Source: Basidiobolus ranarum (Eukaryota). Taken from it: 20,000 nucleotides of DNA. Within the stretch, counting starts at the first letter, position 1. Each line of letters opens with the position of its first letter. Shown here one piece after another: positions 2,128 through 19,092 of the stretch. The stretch spans positions 52,868 to 72,867 of the forward strand of contig JASJQH010006879.1 of NCBI GenBank assembly GCA_040143965.1, given 5' to 3'. Position numbers and translations under genes: made by a program. Below the pieces are notes generated by a model. It had not been told where the DNA came from, made no database searches, and was given only the letters and a program-made list of their open reading frames with translations.

Positions 2128-2870
2128 TTAGGCCATCACATCGTCATATTGAACTCCATTGATTGCACTACCACGCATACTACGACGTACATTTCCTTCG
2201 AAATGGCGGCGGTCAGTTCTCAAATCCTGTGCAGCTTCTATAAATAAATAGCAAATATGTTGATATGTTAACGAACATACATAAGAAGTGAAATAGAAAT
2301 GAGGTAACCTTTATTCAACGGATCTTCAGCGTTGGGTTCAAGGAATAGGTATTGAAGTCCAACCACGACTGAATTGATGTTCAATACAGGCTTCCAATCT
2401 TCACGCAAGATGTTTAGGCAAATGTTTCCGTCCAGGTCAATGTTAGGGTGATATATCTGAGAGAAACAAAAGATCCAAGTTTAGTGAGAAGACTTGGGTG
2501 TAAGTAGTTCCAATATTTTTTCAATACCTTTTGAGTACAGTGAACTTTTGGTGGTTCATGAGGGTAGCTGCTGTTGATTTTGAAAGTGAACTTAAATTCC
2601 CCTCCTTTGTAGAAACCTTCGTCTGGTTTGATACTTAAATTGAAGTTTAATAGATCTTCAGGGGAAGGAAACGACATTTCCATAGTTTTAGGTAATTCAA
2701 GTTCCGAGAGATCTACAAAAAAAGTCAAAAAGTACATAAGAAAGGGGTCAAACTCAGTTACAAGTTCCAAAATATTTACCCTTTTGAACTCGAATTTGAG
2801 CAGCACTGACTTTGGGCTTCTTTTTTTCAGCAGAAGCGGCGTCTTTTTTCATACTGAATAGTTTGATCAT
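2128..2870 (-). CDS. UBC12: NEDD8-conjugating enzyme Ubc12 (E2), 177 aa; exons 2870-2780, 2712-2528, 2456-2309, 2237-2128
   Basis: Spliced translation [38 protein letters not shown]...[52 protein letters not shown]... The MIKLFS N-terminus and LNILREDW are diagnostic of Ubc12. Three GT-AG introns give 534 nt in frame. Confidence 0.95.
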
Positions 2871-3343: not shown

Positions 3344-3817
3344 CTATTGTCTGGGAAGGGCATTACGAATGGTGTTGTATAAGTTTTGGGCAGAGGCGGC
3401 AACTTTGCTAACGTAAGGCTCAACAGTTGAGCGACAAGTCTCAACGACCTCATTGGTAGGCTTCTTGATCAGAGGGAACTTGCCCTCCAAGTAATCCAGT
3501 GATTGACACCCTAAGGCATCGACTTGCTGGATTTGGCGCTGGAAGTAGTTTTGAACTGGCTTAATCACTTTAACCGCAGTGGTGAAAGCAGAATTAGCAG
3601 TATCAGCTACGAAATGGACATAGCGGGAGTTGGAGTCATTGACATAACTTTTGACTGCGTTGACACCATCTTGGATGACAGGGATTTCGTAGATACGAGA
3701 GACAATGTGGAGTTCGTCAGTGGAGCCGTTAGTGGCACCATTCTCTGAGTTACCGTTTTGGTTGGTAGGTTTCTCCTTTTGAACCGATTGGTTGTTGGTG
3801 TTAGATTCTTTGCTCAT
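3344..3817 (-). CDS. Short perilipin-like (PAT domain) lipid-droplet protein, copy 1, 157 aa, intronless
   Basis: IVSRIYEIPVIQDG...QIQQVDALGCQSLDYLEGKFPLIKKPTNEVV matches the PAT pattern (VxRVxxLPxVxS...QIxxAxxxACxxLDxLExxxPxLxxP). Start placed at ATG 3817 (MSKES) because a minus-strand TATAAAA lies at 3901-3907 and MSKESN resembles the MSQESN start of copy 2. Confidence 0.8.
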   Translation of the reverse strand: MSKESNTNNQSVQKEKPTNQNGNSENGATNGSTDELHIVSRIYEIPVIQDGVNAVKSYVNDSNSRYVHFVADTANSAFTTAVKVIKPVQNYFQRQIQQVDALGCQSLDYLEGKFPLIKKPTNEVVETCRSTVEPYVSKVAASAQNLYNTIRNALPRQ

Positions 3818-3900
3818 GATTATACTGAGAAGGTTAAACTCTAGAAGAGATAAATTAAGGAAGGATACGAAGATGTTGTTGACCAGTGGGGAATGGCCAG

Positions 3901-3907
3901 TTTTATA
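3901..3907 (-). promoter_or_regulatory. TATA box of perilipin-like copy 1
   Basis: TATAAAA on the minus strand about 85 nt upstream of ATG 3817. Copies 2 and 3 also have upstream TATA elements. Confidence 0.55.
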
Positions 3908-4356
3908 GAATATGAAAAGCAAAATCATGTGATAGCGTATGCTAGTGGCAATTGCATATGAAAAGTAAATGGTCGGAATTTAGTTACTAGCTATCAGCTA
4001 CTAAAAGGAGCCAAGTAAGAATTTTCTAGGCATATGAAGATCAAAAAAGATGATTTGAGACGATTATCACATGCAAATGATGCTTTCGATATTGTCTATT
4101 TCCAGAGAAATCGATTTCTACATGACTGAAATGGGGTTACAGTACTGGTTTGATAATAACACCATTTCAATTCATTTTCAATGAAGCACTCAGCAACATG
4201 TAGGGCAAGGATTCTATGACGGCCAGGATGGTCTCTTAATTTAGTAAGCCTACTTCTCTTTCCCGAAGTGTATAAACAAGATTTAAACATAAACGTGCTA
4301 CTCTAGAGTCCACATTGAGTGCGTATTAGCAAATCTTCCCCAAAGTTAGGCGAAGC

Positions 4357-4426
4357 TAGTTCTCATCAGTACGGATTAAATGAACATTACATAGTTCTCA
4401 TCAGTACGGATTGAATGGATATTACC
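4357..4426. repeat. 35-bp imperfect tandem duplication
   Basis: TAGTTCTCATCAGTACGGATTaAATGaAcATTAC (4357) versus TAGTTCTCATCAGTACGGATTgAATGgAtATTAC (4392). Confidence 0.9.
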
Positions 4427-4704
4427 AGAGTCTGTGATCCTGGTGATAATGTTTTAGTCATCCCTTTCCATGTTTTAAAGCTGCAACATAATGTGTATGT
4501 TCCGAAGCCTTAATGGGGCTCAATCAATGTGTGATATACGAGATAAGGTGCTCATGAGACATCAAGTAGACTTGGATGATGAAATATTTTAATTTATTAC
4601 TGCTGGTTATTAATGATGAATGTAAATTGCGTACAGTGTATAGGAGTGATGTTATTCTGGTAAGGATTCAAAAACCAAATATTTTGGAGGTACAGGGAGC
4701 AAGC

Positions 4705-5268
4705 TTATTTTCCTTGGACAATGCTGCGAACATTCTGAACCAAGTTCTGTGCTGATGAGGTGACTCCTTCAATGTAGGGTTCTACGGTAGTGCGGCAGGT
4801 TTGAACCAATTCGTTAGTAGGACGCTTGATAATGGGAACTTTGTTCTCAATATAATCTAAGGAGCGGCAGCCGAGCTGATCAGCCTGCTCAATTTGAGAG
4901 TGGAAGCGAGTTTGAACAGGTTGAATCAAACCGGCAACAGTGTGCATAGCAGAACCTGCTGTATCCGCAACAAGGTGGACATAACGAGATTCTGAGCCTT
5001 CAACAAAGGATTTAACAGCGTTGATGCTATCTTGGACTAATGGGATACCACAGATGCGAGAAACAACCTCCAAACTAGCAGTGTTGGATTCTTCCTCAGG
5101 AGTAGGCTGCTCCTCTGTTTTTTCTTCTACTTTCTCGGCTTCTTGTACCTGGGGTTCCTGTTTTTCGACCTCTTCAGCAGTGTCTATGGTTTCAACTGTC
5201 TGAACAGTTTGGTCAGGTGCGTCGGTATTTTCGGATAGAACGCTAAATTGGTTAGATTCTTGAGACAT
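4705..5268 (-). CDS. Short perilipin-like (PAT domain) protein, copy 2, 187 aa, Glu-rich N-terminus
   Basis: VVSRICGIPLVQDS...SQIEQADQLGCRSLDYIENKVPIIKRPTNELV is a clear paralogue of copy 1. TATA element at about 5320-5329. Confidence 0.82.
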   Translation of the reverse strand: MSQESNQFSVLSENTDAPDQTVQTVETIDTAEEVEKQEPQVQEAEKVEEKTEEQPTPEEESNTASLEVVSRICGIPLVQDSINAVKSFVEGSESRYVHLVADTAGSAMHTVAGLIQPVQTRFHSQIEQADQLGCRSLDYIENKVPIIKRPTNELVQTCRTTVEPYIEGVTSSAQNLVQNVRSIVQGK

Positions 5269-5317
5269 ATTAGAAGGTAATTGGAGATTTGCTGATGTTT
5301 CCTTGAGGTGTTCTTAC

Positions 5318-5330
5318 GCTTATATATATG
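5318..5330 (-). promoter_or_regulatory. TATA box of perilipin-like copy 2
   Basis: CATATATATAAGC on the minus strand about 50 nt upstream of the ATG. Copy 3 has CATATATAAGC. Confidence 0.55.
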
Positions 5331-6024
5331 TGAAAAAAGCAAGCTTACTATATTCGGATATAACGGTAGAGATAGCATTGCCAAGTACAATCACCTATGA
5401 ATTATCATATGAAAATAAGCTTGGCTTGATCATTGGTCGATGGGTGGAGATTCGATCACCAATACTTACCGGTAGCGCAGTCACTTAGATTGCGTCAGTA
5501 TCCATGGAGGAAGTAGTAGGTATGATAAGGTCATCATGTCATTTTCACGTGTCGGCATATCTCGGCTTTCACATGGGATTTAGTGGTCTACGTAAATCCG
5601 CGAGAATCTGCGCACAGAAAAGGGAATTTATTCCACAATGGTTGATAGGGTGGCCTGGATGGAAAACGACATTAAACTTTGGGTTAAGGCTATCTGGAAA
5701 TAGAAGTTGTTGACAGCGGAAAGCAATTTAATTCGAAGGTTATTTTGACGAGAACTTTATTTTATCAACAACAAAGATAAAGACAATGTGCCACAGAATG
5801 CTCAAAATAATGCACGTCCCTTATGAAGTGAGTGCACTATAAAGCTCTAAATTTGGCTTTGTTACTGAGTTCCTTGCCATATAAAAAAGACAGGAGTGAT
5901 CACCCAAATAACGAAGAATGCTGATTAATATCAAAAACAGATGGCTATTCTCATATGATAATCCTGGTTGCTACACAACAACATGAGATGGGCAATGATG
6001 TTACAATAAAGCCACCCTGCCATT

Positions 6025-6492
6025 TTATATGAACTTAATGTAACCTAATACACTACGACCTATGGCAACTACTGGTTCTATGGTGGATTGACAAGCTGCC
6101 ACCACTTCATCAGTGGGCCTGTTGATTATAGGGAATCTCTCCTCTAAATAGTTCAAAGATTGGCAACCATAGTGATCCAAGAACTTGAGCTGTGATGTAA
6201 ATGGTGATTGTTGGACGAGCCTTGCCGAGGATTCATGAAGAGTTCCAGCCATATTAGCTATGGGCCGGACGAACTGGACGAATCGTGAGTTGGGGTTCTG
6301 AGTATAAGTTTTGACTGTATTGAGCCCATCGTGTACTATGGGAATTTGGCCAATCCGAGACATCACTTGAGAATCGGACGAGGGTGGAAGAGTCAGATTG
6401 GCAGATTCATCAAGTTTATGCTGAACTTTAGATTTCTTGATGGTTCTGGTCTTTCGGGAGGTTCCACTTTGACTGTTATTGATTGTATTCAT
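6025..6492 (-). CDS. Short perilipin-like (PAT domain) protein, copy 3, 155 aa, basic N-terminus
   Basis: VMSRIGQIPIVHDG...SQLKFLDHYGCQSLNYLEERFPIINRPTDEVV is a more divergent paralogue. TATA element at about 6526-6533. Confidence 0.78.
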   Translation of the reverse strand: MNTINNSQSGTSRKTRTIKKSKVQHKLDESANLTLPPSSDSQVMSRIGQIPIVHDGLNTVKTYTQNPNSRFVQFVRPIANMAGTLHESSARLVQQSPFTSQLKFLDHYGCQSLNYLEERFPIINRPTDEVVAACQSTIEPVVAIGRSVLGYIKFI

Positions 6493-6523
6493 GATTGTTG
6501 AGATAACTTGTGTTGGAACCTTT

Positions 6524-6534
6524 GCTTATATATG
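6524..6534 (-). promoter_or_regulatory. TATA box of perilipin-like copy 3
   Basis: CATATATAAGC on the minus strand about 32 nt upstream of the ATG, sharing its flanks with the copy 2 element. Confidence 0.5.
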
Positions 6535-7047: not shown

Positions 7048-8130
7048 TTACATCAGATGTTCTATTTTCCAATATTTGATGGTTCTTCTCAAGTCGACAT
7101 ATTGAGGCCCTTCAATAGATTCTAAATTTTCAAGGGTTTAGAACAAAGCATGGTTTAAAATGAAATTAGAGATATTGTACCTTCATTTAGCGCCGGTCCA
7201 CCACCGTAGGCCTGTAAGAATTGTTTCCATGCCTCTTGAGAGATCATGAAGAAGTCTTCCCATAATACCAAGTCAGGATCAAACCCGCCTTGTGCCGTAC
7301 ACAGTCTACTGTTGGTAATGGGGCCTGGTGCTGGGTTATTTCCAAGTACAAACCCCTGCCATTCAGACATCCAACTCTGCTCGATAAAGTGACCTATCTC
7401 AAATCCTTCATACATAGAGATATTCCGCTCCTTACGTCTACGTACGATCTCTTCTGAATTGTACAAACTGGGAACGTTGGTTGCCATCAGTGTCATAATT
7501 TCATTAGCTCTATGTGTTTCTATATCGGAGCAATTGGTGCCTATCCATCTGTTGCAATGATAGCACCACAACTCCATCGTATTTAGCTTAAGACTAATAG
7601 AGTGGCCAGTCGATTTGAAATGGTCGTAGGCATGAGCACCTCTCCAGCGTCCACATCCTGTAAATAAGAGGTGGTAAGGTTTTGATACATTTTCAGAAAT
7701 AGACTGAGTGAAGTTTACCTAAGAATTGACAATTGTCGTTTGCACATAGCCATAAATCTGGCACCCCTTCCGTACATTCATCAGAGGAACAGGAAAGTTG
7801 TGAATATATATCTACCAGAGATACATACTGCAAGATTTTCTTCTCCAAGCACTTTCGGTTGAACAGGCTCAAATGTGTACAAATATCGTTAAGCTCAGTA
7901 ACAAACAATTCTTTCCAAGTCATCTGAGGAAGTTTGAAGTTTATATTTTTTTGCAGGAAACACAAGCGGAACCAGATAGAATCCTCGGTAGACACTTGAT
8001 ATAAGTTTTTACATACTAATGTGCAATTGAGTAGATCAGAAAGAGTAAGGTTAGACAATATGTTGACCAGAACCTCATATGGAAGACTGAGCAAAGGGAA
8101 AGAACTCATGTTGCTCAAACGCATAACCAT
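7048..8130 (-). CDS. F-box + UBP-type zinc finger + DUSP domain protein, 320 aa; exons 8130-7719, 7657-7181, 7121-7048
   Basis: F-box: LLSLPYEVLVNILSNLTLSDLLNCTLVCKNLYQVSTEDSIW. ZnF-UBP: CTHL...CSSDEC...LWLCANDNCQFLGCGRWRGAHAYDHFKSTGHSI...LWCYHCNRWI, joined across a 61-nt GT-AG intron. DUSP: HFIEQSWMSEWQGFV...PGPITNSRL...EDFFMISQEAWKQFLQAYGGGP. The joined CDS is 963 nt, in frame. Confidence 0.85.
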
Positions 8131-8741
8131 CTTGTTTAGTCAAAGAAATAAGAAGGTTATGGTTGGTGAAAGAATTAACAAGGTACGAACAAGCACAAGT
8201 CCCTAGCTCAACAAATGAAGAGAACGTCTTGTAGTTCCCCCAATGGTTTCAATTTCTATAAAAAGCACAGATGTATATTGAGCATTTCCCTTTTCTAGTG
8301 AATTTTATATATATAGCAAGTACATAGCGTACAGTCAACTTAATCACTACCAACATCTTCAACAATCAACTCATTATCCCCAAAACACATAAAATACACT
8401 TTTAAAAGCTTGGTTCCGTGGCCAATGAATGATCTCCAGAATCAAGGTCATAGAATTAATGACCTCCTTGGTGTAGCAATAGTACGAAATAGGCAACACG
8501 CATATTAAGAATCAGGAGGGAATTCCCATGTTAGGGATAAGATGTAGGTTGTGTAGTGATGGATAGATACAAACTAGTTGTATGGGGTATCTCGATTAAG
8601 AAATCACCTCAAGCACACTCTCAGTATGAGCAGGCGTTCATGTTAAAAATCAAATGAGTTTATTGTGCTTGCTAGATGCTCTATTTATTCAAGTCGACCA
8701 GGCTACAGTATAATAAATACAATGCAATGGTTATGAAAGTA

Positions 8742-9983
8742 TTAATTTTTCTTCGATAAGACATCTTGGACTGCCTTCAAAACTTCGGGATGAATAGAGG
8801 CAATAGAAGCAACAACTCCTTTGTTGGCTTTCAAAGTTCTTCCAATGGAGAAGTCAAGAGGCTTCCCAGTAATGTCTGTTACTTCACCACCTGCTTCCTT
8901 CACTAACAAATCGCCTGAAGCATGATCCCAAATTTTTTCTTCATAATCAGCACGGGTGGGAAGTCTAAGATAAATATCAGCATCACCACGGGAGATAGAG
9001 CAATACTTGCATTGACTATCCATACGAACAGGTGACCTGGTGATATTAAGCAGTTTAGCTATTTGAGCGGCATCGCTGTGAGATGAATGCTCAGCTTCCA
9101 CAGATTCACAGAATGATGACTCGGAAGTAGAGCTCACTGCACTCATCTTGATAGGTTTCAAATCGTTGCTTTCGAATGATCTCTATAAATGTTCGGATTC
9201 AGTATGTCAAACTCAAGAAGTAGATTATATTGCTGGTAATTACGAACCTGGAAGGCGCCCTCTCCCTCAACAGCAACAAAGAGGCAACCTTTCTCACCTT
9301 CAGGATTTTTGGCATCAACTGGAAGATTAGGGCAACCCATTACTCCAAGACGGACCTTCCCGTCCACAATTAAAGCTAAGCATACAGCAAATTGCTCTCC
9401 GCGAAGAAATCCCTTGGTACCGTCAATGGGATCCAAAGTCCAATGACGACCCTTAGAACCACCTGAATAGCAACCACGATCAATTGCATCTAACAACTGA
9501 AGGTTACAGTTAAAAAAATGAAGCCTTGACCAAGCACTACTCTACTTACTTCTTTGATAGTTTGAGATTCTTCGAGAACTGAATTAGCCAAATCATAGAT
9601 TTTCTCTCTCATGTTTGCAGCGTCCTCTCCATGAAGATCTTTGGAATCTTCTTCACCAACAATTGGATCGTTGGGAAAAGACTTGGCAAGAATAGTATTT
9701 ACAACAGCTTGAGCACTGTAATCGGCAACTGTTATGGGTTACTTTTACTCAGTTTTTATTCAACAGTAAAACAATAAATATAAAACTTACTTGTCACTGG
9801 AGATTTATCTTTCTTTGTAATAGTTTCATTAGAGACGAGCTTTTGGAAGACATTTTGACAGACACGACTAGCTCTCAAGACAGCGTCAATTGCAACAGTT
9901 TTTTCCTGAGCGTAACTAGACATGGTTCTAAAGAAAGAGCAACGGAAATTGTTGTATGCGCGGGAAGCCAATATTCGATTCAT
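8742..9983 (-). CDS. MET22: 3'(2'),5'-bisphosphate nucleotidase (PAP phosphatase), 353 aa; exons 9983-9791, 9728-9550, 9496-9248, 9182-8742
   Basis: Motifs KKDKSPVTIADYSAQA, IVGEED, WTLDPIDGTKGFLRGEQFAVCLAL, ESVEAEHSSH, MDSQCKY and YEEKIWDHASG identify the Hal2/Met22 family. The spliced CDS is 1062 nt, in frame. Confidence 0.93.
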
Positions 9984-10463: not shown

Positions 10464-12046
10464 TCAGTAGGAGCCTAACTCGAAGTTAGTCACTTGGGGC
10501 AAGTAAGCACAGGCACTCAAATCCAAGATGTAAACTTCATCATAAACATGCTGCCCATCATATCCACCGTACATGAACAGCCTAGAATCGTACAATACTG
10601 CGGTGTGATAACCTCTGCCTGTAGGTGGCATTCCGTAGATTTTCCGAGTTTCCCAATTCATGGTCACTGAAAATTCATGTAAATCTGAGATTCGTGCTAC
10701 CAGGAGAACAGGTCATGCAAAGTGAAAAGTTACCTAGATTCAGTAAAAGTACATCCTGTACATATTTATCACCATCATGTCCTCCGATTACAAATATATA
10801 TGAGCCAACTTGAGTAGCCGTGTGGGAAAGTCTGGGAACACGCTCACTCAACTTTACTCGTTGCCATGTGTGTGTCTCTTGAAAGGTGTGTCAGTTAGTG
10901 TGAAGTTGAATTGAGAATAAACCAGCTTACCAATGTCTAAGACATGAGCTTCACTAAAGCATTCGTGACCATCTGATCCGCCGTATATTAGAAGTTTGTT
11001 TTCAACCAGCGTACCAGTGTGATACCCCCTAGGGATCGGTGGCTTTCCTTTAACTTCAACGGGATACCACGTAAGTTTGCTTATATCCGCTGATTAAATG
11101 TGTTACTGAGAGGTCTGAGAAGTGCATCAGCAGAGAATACATACATATGTCTAAGCGGAAAACATCATTAAGCGCACGAAGTCCATCTCCTCCTCCAAAT
11201 AAATATATATATTGTCCATAATGGCATGCTGTATGTGCTCGACGAGGACCGGGGATTTCACCATGAATTTTCGGCTTTGACCAAGTCAGGGTGTCTATAC
11301 AAAATGAATGATTCTGTTCAGATTTGTGCATATTATGCGACTTGACGAGAAAATCATTAATACCCGTATCGAGAATATAAAGCTCATTAAAATAGTTGGG
11401 GCCATCACCACCGCCAAAGATAAACAATTTGTTATCAACTAACGTAGAGGTGTGAGCTCTACATGGGGCTGGTGGCTCACCATTCGTCTGTGGATTTGAC
11501 CAGTACATGGTTTCTATTGTTGATGGTCACATTAACCATTAAGCCTCATGAATAAAAAAGAAACATCCTTCATATCTTACCAGCATCGAATACATATAAA
11601 TCATTATAGCAAGTGTTTTCGTCACAACCACCAAAAATGTAAATCAATTCTCCCACCAAATTAACACTATGAGCTCGAAGAGATTTCGGAGGTGAATGGC
11701 CATAGATAGGCGCCTTAGACCAATACATCGCTGGAGCTGGAGCTGGAGCTGGAGGAACATCGGCAGTTGGTGATTCTAAATCAGAAGTGTACTTTTGTTC
11801 AGCGTTCGTTGAACCACGCCAAGAAGTTCTTCGACGATGATACGCCTGGGAATTGCTAGATATTTGAGCAGGCATGGACTGACGTGCCATTTGCTTAGTC
11901 TTAACAATAGCTGGTAAGCTAGCAGAAGCAGAGTTGGCTACTGTAGCGCCATGACTGGATGGACGTTGCGACTTATAGGTAAAGAATATTCGAGCATTAA
12001 CTTTGATAAATTAGACTGTACTAGGAAGTAATTGCGATATTACCAT
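10464..12046 (-). CDS. Kelch-repeat (six-blade beta-propeller) protein, about 399 aa; exons 12046-12044 (ATG only, tentative), 11971-11581, 11513-11364, 11294-11145, 11089-10931, 10877-10734, 10666-10464
   Basis: Six repeats of the pattern R-x-H-[ST]...IYIFGG.D.....D...LD....W (LRAHS, CRAHT, RRAHT, RGYHT, RLSHT, RGYHT). All junctions keep frame (1200 nt). The first micro-exon is inferred; ATG 11890 is the alternative start. Confidence 0.85.
11730..11753 (-). repeat. Coding hexamer microsatellite (GCTGGA)4 encoding a Pro-Ala repeat
   Basis: Seen directly; it encodes the PAPAPAPA linker just before the first kelch blade. Confidence 0.85.
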
Positions 12047-15811: not shown

Positions 15812-17127
15812 TTACACTTCAAGTTTCAAACTATCTAGAAACTCGGCGATATACTTATTACTCAGATCTGGTTCCTCCATAAGAACCCAGTGAGTACCAT
15901 TTTCAATATGCGCCCTTTTTAAGTTAGGAATGTACAAAGGCATATGGATAGTGAGGATGGGAAGTAATATCGTATCTTGACCTGCGGTAACCATCATTGA
16001 AGGGACATCGATGGTGGTGGGCAAATCTATCTCTTCTTCAAAGATTACTCGTAGGGTACGGTACCAACTCAGTCCCCCATAGAATCCAGCCTTAGTATAC
16101 GTATCAATATAGTACTGTAATTCCTTCTCAGACATAATATTGTCTGGTTTAGGCTGGGACAAGCCTGCATCTTGAGGAAGTAAGAGGGTGTGTTTAAGGA
16201 ACCCAAGAGCATCGTCTTCAGGTTTGTTGCATCTGAATATTGATCTCAATGCGAGTCCAACATTCGCGTCAAAGTACTTGACAGTTTCAAGCTTTGCAAA
16301 AATTAGTTGATAGGCCATAGTAGGTACCATTTTAACTATTTGTTCAGGCTTATAAAAAGTCTTTTGGGGTGGGATGTAGGGAGTACAAAAGCTAGCTACT
16401 CCCAACACTCGTTCGGGGTGGTGTAGATAAACCCTCCAAGCAAGAAAGCCTCCCCAATCGTGTCCGATGAGAACAAACTTGCCGATGTTATTCTTGTCAA
16501 GAATTTCAATTATGTCATTTGATATATTCTTCAGCCCATAACTACGAATGTCATTCGGTGGAGAGAGAGGTGAGCTGGTTTCACCGTAACCGCGCAAGTC
16601 TGGACATATCACACGATATCCGCGTGCTGTTAAAAACTTGATTTGATGTCTCCAACCATACCAGAGCTGTAAGCCTGACTTTTAGCAAAAAGCGGAAATA
16701 TTGAAGTGAACTAGAGTGGCACCACTTACATCGGGGAACCCATGGAGTAATACGACGACAGGACCATCCTTCGGTCCTTCGTCCACGTAGTCTAGAGCTA
16801 ATCTTTAGCCAAGATTTCAAGAGAAACGTCACTTTAGCATCTATACTTACGATACTTTATACCATTGATGTCATCGTATCGGTGATTGTAAGTGTCGGGG
16901 GAGAATGGATCTAAAGCAGTTATATTTCTGTTTGGCTCGACTGTGACGAGCTTACCTCCTTGGAAATATTAATGATTTGGGTTTAGTAAGCCGTTACGAG
17001 AAGAGTAGATATAATTGCTGTTTCTCTAACCTACAGGTGATGTGAGTACATTTTGATCTGCTCGAGAAAGAAAACTCTGACATAACAACACCACTATGGC
17101 GACAAAAAGAGAAGATCTACTTAGCAT
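15812..17127 (-). CDS. Epoxide hydrolase-like alpha/beta hydrolase with predicted signal peptide, copy 1, 373 aa; exons 17127-17031, 16958-16851, 16791-16730, 16666-15812
   Basis: LLHGFPDLWYGWRHQI (oxyanion motif), PDLRGYG, IGHDWGG (Asp nucleophile), AYQL and GLSWYR (lid Tyr), AGQD (charge relay) and THW (His base). Exon 1 encodes MLSRSSLFVAIVVLLCQSFLSRA. The CDS is 1122 nt in frame. Confidence 0.88.
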
Positions 17128-17796: not shown

Positions 17797-19092
17797 TCAG
17801 AATTTCAAACTGGCTAGAAACTCGGCGATGTACTTGTTACTCAAAGCCGGTTGCTCAATAAGAATCCAATGGGCACTATGCTCAACATGTTCTCTCTTCA
17901 AGTTTGGAATGCTCAAAGGCATGCGATTTGAAAGTTCTGGGAGCAATATTTTATCTTGGCCTGCAGTAACCATCATTGAAGGGACATTGATGGTGGTGGG
18001 CAGACCTTTCTCATCTTCCCAGTTAACTCTAGTCGTACGGTACCAGTTCAATCCACCATGGAACCCTCGCTTAGTGTATGTGTCAACATAGTACTGTAAC
18101 TCTTTCTCAGACATGATATTGTCTGGCTTAGGCTGAGGTACATTGGCATCTTTGGGAAGTAAGAGGATGTGTTTTAGGAACCCATTAACATCATCTTCAG
18201 GTTTGTTACATCTGAATAGTGATCTGAATACTAATCCAACATTATCGTCAAAGTATTTATCGGTTTTGGGATCTCTAAAAACGAGTTGATACGCAAAACT
18301 AGGGATCTTCTTCACTTTTTCTTCCAGAGAAACATAATCTTTGGTAGGTGGCAAGTAGGGAGTACTAAAACTAGCAATTCCCAACACTCGCTCGGGGTGG
18401 TATAGATAAATCCTCCAAACAAGAAAACCTCCCCAATCATGGCCGATGAGAGCAAACTTGCCAATATTGTTCTTGTCAAGAATTGCAATTATGTCCTTTG
18501 ATATACTCTTTAGCCCATAACTATGAATGTCATTCGGTGGGGAATGAGGTGAGCTAGTTTCGCCGTAACCGCGTAAGTCTGGACATATCACACGATACCC
18601 ACGTTCTGCTAAGAACTTGATTTGATGTCTCCAACCATACCAGAGCTGCAAACCTATCTTTTAGTACAAAGTAGAAATATCGAAATAAACTAGAGTAGCA
18701 CCACTTACATCGGGGAACCCATGAACTAGCACAACAACAGGACCATCCTTCGGTCCTTCATCCACGTAGTCTAGAGCTAGTTGTTAGCTGAGGTTGCAAG
18801 AGAAACAGCACTTTAGCTTCTATACATACGATACTTTATCCCATTGATGTGATCATACCGGTGATTGTAAGTGTTGGGAGAGAGTGGATCCAAAGTAGTT
18901 ATATTTCTATTTAGCTCGACTTTGACGAGCTTACCTCCTTGTAAACATTAATGATTTAAATCGTGGTTAGAGAAAAGGTTTTTTGTTCCCCTTACCTGCT
19001 CGTGATTTGTGTACACTTTGATGTGCTTGAGTGAGAAAACTCTGACACAACAACACCACTAGGGCGACGAAAAGAGAAGATCTACCCAGCAT
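17797..19092 (-). CDS. Epoxide hydrolase-like alpha/beta hydrolase with predicted signal peptide, copy 2, 371 aa; exons 19092-18996, 18937-18830, 18770-18709, 18645-17797
   Basis: Same catalytic motifs as copy 1 (LVHGFPD, GHDWGG, AYQL, GLNWYR, GQD, AHW) and the same sizes for exons 1-3 (97, 108, 62 nt). Exon 1 encodes MLGRSSLFVALVVLLCQSFLTQA. Confidence 0.9.

Follow-up and report, generated by a model that had tools for sequence, protein, structure and literature searches.

The gene at the locus

The window analysed here is a stretch of 20,000 nucleotides (nt) from Basidiobolus ranarum (assembly GCA_040143965.1, contig JASJQH010006879.1, positions 52,868-72,867 of the forward strand). Within it, from window position 8130 down to 7048, lies the subject of this report, a gene of three exons, all on the minus strand, whose product combines an F-box, a zinc finger of the ZnF-UBP type and a DUSP domain. 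The gene and its product are laid out as follows.

7719..8130, minus strand: exon 1, residues 1-137 and the first base of codon 138, with the ATG, the F-box and the N-terminal half of the ZnF-UBP
7658..7718, minus strand: intron 1, 61 nt, GT..AG, phase 1, interrupting the ZnF-UBP within the conserved G-C-G-R motif
7181..7657, minus strand: exon 2, residues 138-297 in part, with the C-terminal half of the ZnF-UBP, the linker helices and the DUSP
7122..7180, minus strand: intron 2, 59 nt, GT..AG, phase 1
7048..7121, minus strand: exon 3, 74 nt, residues 297-320 and the TAA stop (7050-7048), with a conserved C-terminal helix packing on the DUSP
7957..8094, minus strand: F-box, residues 13-58 (PF12937, PF00646)
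7542..7881, minus strand: ZnF-UBP, residues 84-176, interrupted by intron 1 (PF02148)
7120..7391, minus strand: DUSP, residues 227-297 by Pfam, its end crossing intron 2 (PF06337)
7647..7649, minus strand: codon of Arg141, the key pocket arginine of the ZnF-UBP (equivalent to HDAC6 R1155)

The spliced coding sequence of 963 nt specifies 320 amino acids and a stop. Neither intron has a length divisible by 3, and a frame continued into either one is soon closed by a stop, after no more than a few codons: the open reading frame (ORF) at 7693-8139 terminates within intron 1 and the ORF at 7155-7718 within intron 2. An in-frame TGA (8142-8140) lies directly 5' of the ATG region, so the frame does not extend further in that direction unless there is another intron. 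The earlier note on this DNA had proposed just this two-intron model (GT-AG introns at 7718-7658 and 7180-7122, 320 amino acids), and the translation of the spliced sequence matches at 100% of residues the NCBI entry "hypothetical protein K7432_000230 [Basidiobolus ranarum]" (P0004, 320 amino acids). An independent annotation pipeline thus arrived at the same gene model.

One might still suspect an artefact of gene prediction, which would have joined two separate genes, one with the F-box and the other with the DUSP, or the remnants of a pseudogene. The strongest internal evidence that there is one gene is that intron 1 splits a single zinc finger. Exon 2 alone covers positions 21-58 of the zf-UBP profile (6.1e-10), while the spliced protein covers positions 3-58 with an improved E-value, and the codon at the junction is Gly138 of the GCGR motif, conserved in the family and restored by splicing. 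Since one finger is shared between the two ORFs, they are not separate genes. Beyond the locus, the orthologue in B. meristosporus (P0005) is likewise 320 amino acids long, with 76% identity, and an ORF from a Trinity transcript of Copromyxa protea carries the three domains uninterrupted. Several other full-length relatives come from contigs of about 0.94-1.03 kb, little longer than their ORFs, which are presumably assembled transcripts and would argue in the same direction, as does the high confidence of the AlphaFold2 model over both splice junctions. We give an artefact almost no credence and regard the three-exon gene and the architecture that it encodes as very nearly certain.

Domains and predicted fold

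Pfam finds all three domains in the 320-residue protein, well above the curated cut-offs. The F-box is recognized twice, as F-box-like (PF12937, residues 14-58, 1.1e-13, 51.1 bits against a cut-off of 24.3) and as F-box (PF00646, residues 13-54, 1.5e-10, 41 bits against 20.5), and the exon 1 piece alone gives F-box-like at 2.6e-14. The zf-UBP match (PF02148) extends over residues 118-176 (8.2e-13, 48.8 bits against 22.7) and the DUSP match (PF06337) over residues 227-297 (5.9e-16, 59.1 bits against 29.3; 3.9e-16 with exon 2 alone). The combination of the three in one protein had been predicted from the letters of the sequence, with boundaries that fall within a few bases of 8094-7957 for the F-box, 7881-7542 for the ZnF-UBP and 7391-7120 for the DUSP.

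The absence of a USP catalytic core had also been predicted, and the catalytic UCH/USP families (PF00443, PF13423) indeed have no match in the protein at E<=0.1. At the same threshold there is no RING family, nor any Pfam family beyond the F-box, zf-UBP and DUSP. To judge from its domains, then, the protein is catalytically inert.

The F-box aligns without gaps to the F-box of SKP2, solved with SKP1, and to that of FBXO3, and the alignment with FBXO3 continues into a W-K-x-L-F stretch that follows the F-box. An AlphaFold2 model based on an alignment of 27 family sequences has a mean pLDDT of 91.4, a pTM of 0.84 and no low-confidence segments. In it, the F-box helices occupy residues 18-25, 30-37, 41-47 and 50-61. 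The finger and the DUSP are separated by only about 50 residues, and the structural DUSP, with its N-terminal helix, begins near residue 205-210 (about 7442), upstream of the Pfam boundary. The helix of exon 3 (residues 302-319) is predicted with high confidence, and its Y..LR......W pattern is kept in relatives.

Comparison with solved structures by VIA places residues 82-201 of the model on the ZnF-UBP of HDAC6 (Z 11.0-11.1, root-mean-square deviation (rmsd) 2.6 A, 97-98 residues, with 98 of the 101 residues of the HDAC6 finger covered), and the matched entries include structures with ubiquitin or an RLRGG peptide bound. The isolated finger of USP5 is matched at Z 9.0-9.2. Residues 210-301 match the DUSP domains of USP15 and USP11 (Z 10.0, rmsd 1.6-1.9 A), that of USP15 at 1.6 A over 88 residues (model range 210-297). 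Foldseek agrees with these matches; the SKP1-FBXO3 complex was matched weakly, at rank 47. The modelled layout is thus an N-terminal F-box followed by a separate candidate substrate module (ZnF-UBP 84-176 plus DUSP 205-300), predicted with confidence as one unit.

A family with the same order of domains

The architecture might have been a one-off. It is not. When 1.84 billion representatives were scanned exhaustively with phmmer, 882 proteins came up at E<=1e-3, of which 136 reached <=1e-10 and 23 reached <=1e-30. The 150 matches listed, together with the B. ranarum protein, make up a set of 151 that was classified by three small hidden Markov models (F-box, ZnF, and linker plus DUSP) built from the family alignment itself. 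That alignment, called A1, holds 27 of the 30 matches that span the full length; three long models (P0051, P0068 and P0118) were excluded. The order F-box - ZnF - DUSP was found in 45 of the 151, and the classes are:

F-box - ZnF - DUSP: 45 proteins, 42 of them plain, 2 with a split DUSP match and 1 with an extra N-terminal DUSP
F-box - ZnF only: 21 proteins of 150-363 amino acids, 15 of them under 240 and fragment-like
ZnF - DUSP: 39 proteins, the short ones N-terminally cut-looking fragments and the long ones deubiquitinases
ZnF - DUSP - DUSP: 23 proteins of 665-1428 amino acids
Remainder: combinations with ZnF only or DUSP only

Pfam serves as an independent check. Of the 27 sequences in A1, 26 have a DUSP by this measure, 24 match F-box-like and 19 match zf-UBP, and Pfam finds all three domains in P0006, P0010, P0020, P0023 and P0045.

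The family amounts to at least 45 clusters at 50% identity and extends over several eukaryotic supergroups. Its named members are:

Basidiobolus: two paralogues in B. ranarum (P0004 and P0006) and one protein in B. meristosporus
Zoopagales: Thamnocephalis
Chytrids: Rhizophlyctis, Borealophlyctis, Chytriomyces, Obelidium, Polyrhizophydium and Gonapodya
Mucorales: many members
Amoebozoa: Copromyxa protea, from the Trinity transcript ORF
Rhizaria: Paulinella micropora

Lineages were looked up for B. ranarum, C. protea and P. micropora; the placement in phyla of the other named members is the one we take to hold. No animal, plant or dikaryan protein is among the named members listed, and as most representatives are nameless, this does not imply that those groups lack the family.

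Four members, P0006 (B. ranarum KAK9763801.1), P0007, P0009 and P0180, are labelled "Ubiquitin carboxyl-terminal hydrolase 33" or "20" in NCBI or UniRef. P0006, the one of the four that was checked with Pfam, has an F-box, a zf-UBP and a DUSP with no detectable UCH domain. Without that domain the label is a misnomer, an error of name transfer.

The three long models set aside come from Chytriomyces sp. MP71 and Hesseltinella. P0051 has the module behind a TatD DNase and P0118 has it behind DUF3020, while P0068, of 2347 amino acids, places F-box, ZnF and DUSP between an androglobin/calpain part and an LD-carboxypeptidase. They were considered as informative fusions and rejected, as they are probably merged models of neighbouring genes.

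Relationship to deubiquitinases

The earlier note had likened the finger and the DUSP to the accessory domains of the deubiquitinases USP20 and USP33, and the comparison holds. The best sequence matches of the finger among solved structures are USP33 (6.1e-11) and USP20 (1.3e-9), and the best relative lacking an F-box among those whose names were looked up is a snake USP20 (P0040, 6e-24). A UCH domain lies between the finger and the DUSP in all 10 of the long ZnF-DUSP relatives sampled, at 1e-53 or better. USP20/33-type enzymes have two DUSP domains, and in each of the 26 two-DUSP relatives of at least 600 amino acids without an F-box, the DUSP profile of the family prefers the second (36-75 bits) over the first (12-33 bits), the match taking in the RR..E helix that precedes it. 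Together these similarities support a common ancestry of the ZnF-UBP plus DUSP module with enzymes of the USP20/33 type.

A quick maximum likelihood tree (LG+G4) of the concatenated ZnF and DUSP columns was made from 81 rows, 45 with an F-box and 36 of USP type; the other 70 of the 151 proteins lack a domain or are short fragments. The F-box proteins cluster: two label changes are needed (one is not excluded), and none of 500 shuffles gave a number as low. The tree is unrooted and 37 of its 78 inner branches are open. It was considered as evidence for the direction in which the domains were transferred, from a deubiquitinase that exchanged its core for an F-box or the other way round, and, given its low support and the lack of a root, rejected for that purpose.

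The zinc finger and its pocket

All of the Cys and His columns of the finger are present in the B. ranarum protein (C84, H86, C114, C119, C129, C134, C139, H146, H150, H156, C169 and C172), and at each of these positions 34-45 of the 45 three-domain members have Cys or His; their assignment to three zinc sites is assumed by homology. The pocket is made up of W127, G140, R141, W142, W168, Y170 and W175. In an ungapped HMMER alignment of exon 2 with HDAC6 chain 5wpb, G140, R141, W168, Y170 and W175 fall on HDAC6 G1154, R1155, W1182, Y1184 and Y1189, and W142 stands opposite the Tyr that follows the Arg in HDAC6. In HDAC6, the ligand lies between R1155 and W1182, is hydrogen-bonded to G1154 and Y1184 and has Y1189 nearby; these residues grip the terminal glycine, and binding is lost in the R1155A/Y1184A mutant (PMC10424181). 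The ZnF-UBPs of HDAC6, USP5, USP16 and BRAP2 are described in a preprint as binding the free C-terminal Gly-Gly of ubiquitin, and those of USP13, USP20, USP22, USP33 and USP39 as not binding ubiquitin (bioRxiv 10.1101/2025.09.28.679104).

USP33 and USP20 have Glu at the site of the Arg and Asp four residues further on. It is with this acidic pair that the fingers of USP20/33 hold internal [KR]xxL[NED] motifs (PMC13376213). In the B. ranarum protein the corresponding residues, E55 and D59 of USP20, are replaced by R141 and A145. By its residues, therefore, the finger is USP20/33-like overall, yet its pocket is of the canonical type that holds a ubiquitin tail. Two kinds of target had been left open earlier, free ubiquitin or unanchored chains on the one hand and the clients or partners of a USP20/33-like deubiquitinase on the other. 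The canonical pocket favours the first over the second.

Of the 36 USP-type relatives, 16 have R at the Arg site, 10 have E, 3 have K, 2 have Q and 5 have another residue. The Glu, which in human USP20/33 accompanies the loss of ubiquitin binding, may thus be derived and confined to a part of these enzymes. Among the 45 three-domain members, the pocket residues are kept as follows:

Arg141: 29 of 45
Trp127: 28 of 45
Trp168: 33 of 45, with Phe or Tyr in a further 9
Tyr170: 29 of 45, with Phe in a further 4
Trp175: 30 of 45

In the Mucorales-type rows P0053, P0074, P0076, P0083-P0087 and P0094, the pocket Arg is gone from the finger, as are several of its Cys/His columns, while the F-box and the DUSP are retained. 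It looks like a zinc finger degenerating within a conserved scaffold.

What the protein may do

The reading that we favour, at a probability of a little under one half (about 0.45), is that the protein serves as a substrate receptor of an SCF (Skp1-Cul1-F-box) ubiquitin ligase, one that reads free Gly-Gly C-termini such as that of unanchored ubiquitin and uses its DUSP as a second docking site. The N-terminal F-box would dock onto Skp1 and hence join a cullin-1 ligase (Skp1-Cul1-Rbx1). The ZnF-UBP, packed against a DUSP2-like domain, would form the unit of substrate recognition. It would capture a free -Gly-Gly tail, whether of unanchored ubiquitin or polyubiquitin or of another ubiquitin-like protein ending in -GG; such a tail is the preferred ligand because the canonical pocket is kept. 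The DUSP would contribute a second surface for docking peptides, and the bound ligand would then be ubiquitylated. We infer the engagement of Skp1 and Cul1, the identity of the ligand and the outcome in ubiquitylation from sequence and its relationships.

Several considerations pull the other way. The finger, taken over its full length, most resembles those of USP33 and USP20, which do not bind ubiquitin. USP49 has CGRY and yet did not bind the C-terminal peptide of ubiquitin (bioRxiv 10.1101/2025.09.28.679104), so the Arg is necessary for binding a ubiquitin tail but insufficient. The Arg is missing in 16 of the 45 members, mostly on a Mucorales-type branch that has also lost several columns of zinc ligands, and Pfam fails to detect zf-UBP in 8 of the 27 aligned members. 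The columns invariant in all 27 are C84, H86, C169, C172, E184, E214 and Y288, none of them a pocket residue: the first four form one Cys/His set, E184 and E214 lie in the helices between the finger and the DUSP as bounded by Pfam, and Y288 is in the DUSP. With the pocket eroded in part of the family, a function common to all members may not depend on it. A third of the family is without the pocket but with the DUSP, and the family-wide function may rest, to judge from this pattern, on the DUSP and the linker. Finally, some F-box proteins work with Skp1 outside of cullin ligases.

The main alternative is that the protein is an SCF receptor whose ZnF-UBP and DUSP dock internal short linear motifs of clients other than ubiquitin, as in USP20/33. 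The ligase would then oppose a deubiquitinase of that type on common clients and read no ubiquitin tails. Both domains are closest to the USP20/33 set, the DUSP profile favours, in all 26 comparisons, DUSP2, the one that binds motifs, and members without the Arg keep the DUSP (Pfam detects it in 26 of 27, against 19 of 27 for zf-UBP). However, the acidic residues that hold the motif in USP20 are those replaced by R141 and A145. The groove of the DUSP, which in DUSP2 of USP20/33 takes up [FW]x[IL] peptides, gives a mixed picture. If the F..WE...K.K pattern of snake USP20 is aligned through BLASTP, with an assumed offset of 6 residues in the numbering, W241 maps to USP20 W828, and M238, Q242, L246 and N248 map to F825, E829, K833 and K835. 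On this putative mapping the Trp is kept but the charged contacts are not. Nor was a Basidiobolus protein of USP20/33 type identified, and a search for longer homologues, fused to a USP core, found none among 722 candidates, a negative that weighs little. Docking of such clients seems to us an unlikely account, though one to be taken seriously.

Less probable again, indeed improbable, is that the protein binds Skp1, ubiquitin or both without delivering anything to a cullin. It might then be a sensor of the ubiquitin pool, a scaffold, a regulator or decoy of deubiquitinases, or a self-regulated adaptor whose own stability depends on free ubiquitin. F-box proteins with roles outside SCF ligases are known, and the pTM of the model suggests a compact unit. 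Elsewhere, for example in USP22 and USP39, ZnF-UBPs are given structural or regulatory roles (bioRxiv 10.1101/2025.09.28.679104). Against this, a canonical N-terminal F-box followed by a separate binding module is the standard layout of a receptor, and no feature of the sequence argues away from SCF.

The SCF receptor for Gly-Gly ends might be generalized from the B. ranarum protein to all its relatives, making the family as a whole a cullin-1 receptor for free Gly-Gly C-termini, the ligase-side counterpart of USP5/IsoT and HDAC6. For the family at large we consider this doubtful.

Neighbouring genes

The F-box gene is flanked by three tandem perilipin-like ORFs (3344-6525) and by an inositol monophosphatase gene (8742-9541). 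The perilipin-like gene looks locally triplicated, directly downstream of the F-box gene. The other features recognized in the window are:

3344-3979, 4705-5313 and 6025-6525, minus strand: perilipin-like ORFs, matching the N-terminal part of Perilipin at 5.7e-10, 5.4e-12 and 2e-06, respectively
2414-2848, minus strand: exon of a Ubc12/UBE2M-like NEDD8-conjugating E2 (6e-22 to PDB 1y8x; Pfam UQ_con)
11056-12010, minus strand: Kelch-repeat gene (KLHDC2/KLHL20/DRC7 Kelch-repeats domain, a broad family, 1.1e-29)
15812-16681 and 17797-18660, minus strand: tandem paralogues of an alpha/beta-hydrolase (Abhydrolase_1), with ORFs of 287-289 amino acids
Other neighbours: a pseudouridine synthase and a phosphoesterase

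Two of these invite comparison with the F-box gene. Ubc12 activates cullins through neddylation, and the Ubc12-like ORF is about 4.2 kb away; the adjacency is probably due to chance. Human KLHDC2 reads diglycine C-degrons, but the Pfam family of Kelch repeats is so broad that nothing can be concluded from the name. Neighbouring genes, the Ubc12-like E2 included, were considered as functional context and set aside, as gene order in eukaryotes rarely implies function.

Comparison with described systems

The closest relatives by domain content are USP20 and USP33 (VDU2 and VDU1). In them, too, a ZnF-UBP stands towards the N-terminus and a DUSP towards the C-terminus, both of the subtypes seen here. 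They have in common with the B. ranarum protein a longer C-x-(Y/F)-(V/L)-G-C-G loop, and it is their DUSP2, with the preceding RR..E helix, that the DUSP of the family resembles. The B. ranarum protein differs in having no UCH domain, one DUSP instead of two and an F-box added at the N-terminus, and in carrying Arg at the pocket site where the vertebrate enzymes have Glu. The ZnF-UBPs of HDAC6 and USP5 have the same fold and the same pocket residues (G-R, W, Y and an aromatic), although HDAC6 has Tyr where Trp is found here at 142 and 175. Their hosts are a deacetylase and a deubiquitinase, whereas the host in this case is a predicted ligase adaptor.

On the side of the ligases, SKP2 and FBXO3 likewise have an N-terminal F-box followed by a module that binds substrate, and FBXO3 shares the W-K-x-L-F stretch. 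Receptors of this type employ leucine-rich repeats, WD40, ApaG or similar domains, as opposed to a ZnF-UBP with a DUSP. F-box proteins determine the targets of SCF ligases, and ZnF-UBP domains are specific readers of unconjugated ubiquitin tails. To our knowledge, BRAP2 (IMP) is the only described precedent for a ubiquitin ligase with a ZnF-UBP. BRAP2 resembles the B. ranarum protein in being a ligase component with a ZnF-UBP that binds the C-terminal peptide of ubiquitin (bioRxiv 10.1101/2025.09.28.679104). It differs in being a RING ligase without F-box or DUSP, whereas Pfam finds no RING in the B. ranarum protein.

As for C-terminal glycines, the analogy with CRL2-KLHDC2/3/10 is a functional one and valid only if the ZnF-UBP of the B. 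ranarum protein binds -GG ends. CRL2-KLHDC2/3/10 are receptors of cullin ligases for C-termini ending in glycine or diglycine, and they recognize these ends with a Kelch propeller, through a different cullin and without homology to the proteins described here.

The earlier note had known of no characterised protein with this architecture, and in a search of the full-text literature, judged by titles and the beginnings of abstracts and with subscription journals and supplements outside its reach, no F-box protein turned up that was described as carrying a ZnF-UBP or a DUSP. The architecture is visible in public precomputed Pfam annotation; it is not hidden, only undescribed. The family, widespread though unstudied, would be a further case of the modular F-box receptor, its recognition module being one not described before. 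Two things temper the surprise: there is an earlier example of a ligase with a ZnF-UBP, and F-box proteins are well known for their modularity.

There are nonetheless reasons to study it. A practical one is that several members are mislabelled in public databases as USP20 or USP33 hydrolases. The proteins are small (about 300-400 amino acids), confidently predicted and found in fungi, Amoebozoa and Rhizaria, hence an easy target for biochemistry, and a worthwhile one in view of the intact ubiquitin-tail pocket and of a distribution that is both wide and patchy. The family also constitutes a natural experiment in the reuse of the accessory domains of deubiquitinases. If the protein does read free Gly-Gly ends, then the pool of free or unanchored ubiquitin would be coupled directly to a cullin ligase, a link so far made only for the RING ligase BRAP2, and the solution, based on a ZnF-UBP, would be convergent with the CRL2-KLHDC2 diglycine C-degron pathway of animals. 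Early-diverging fungi, amoebae and rhizarians would then have in these proteins a means of sensing unanchored ubiquitin chains or other proteins that end in -GG, of extending them or of clearing them.

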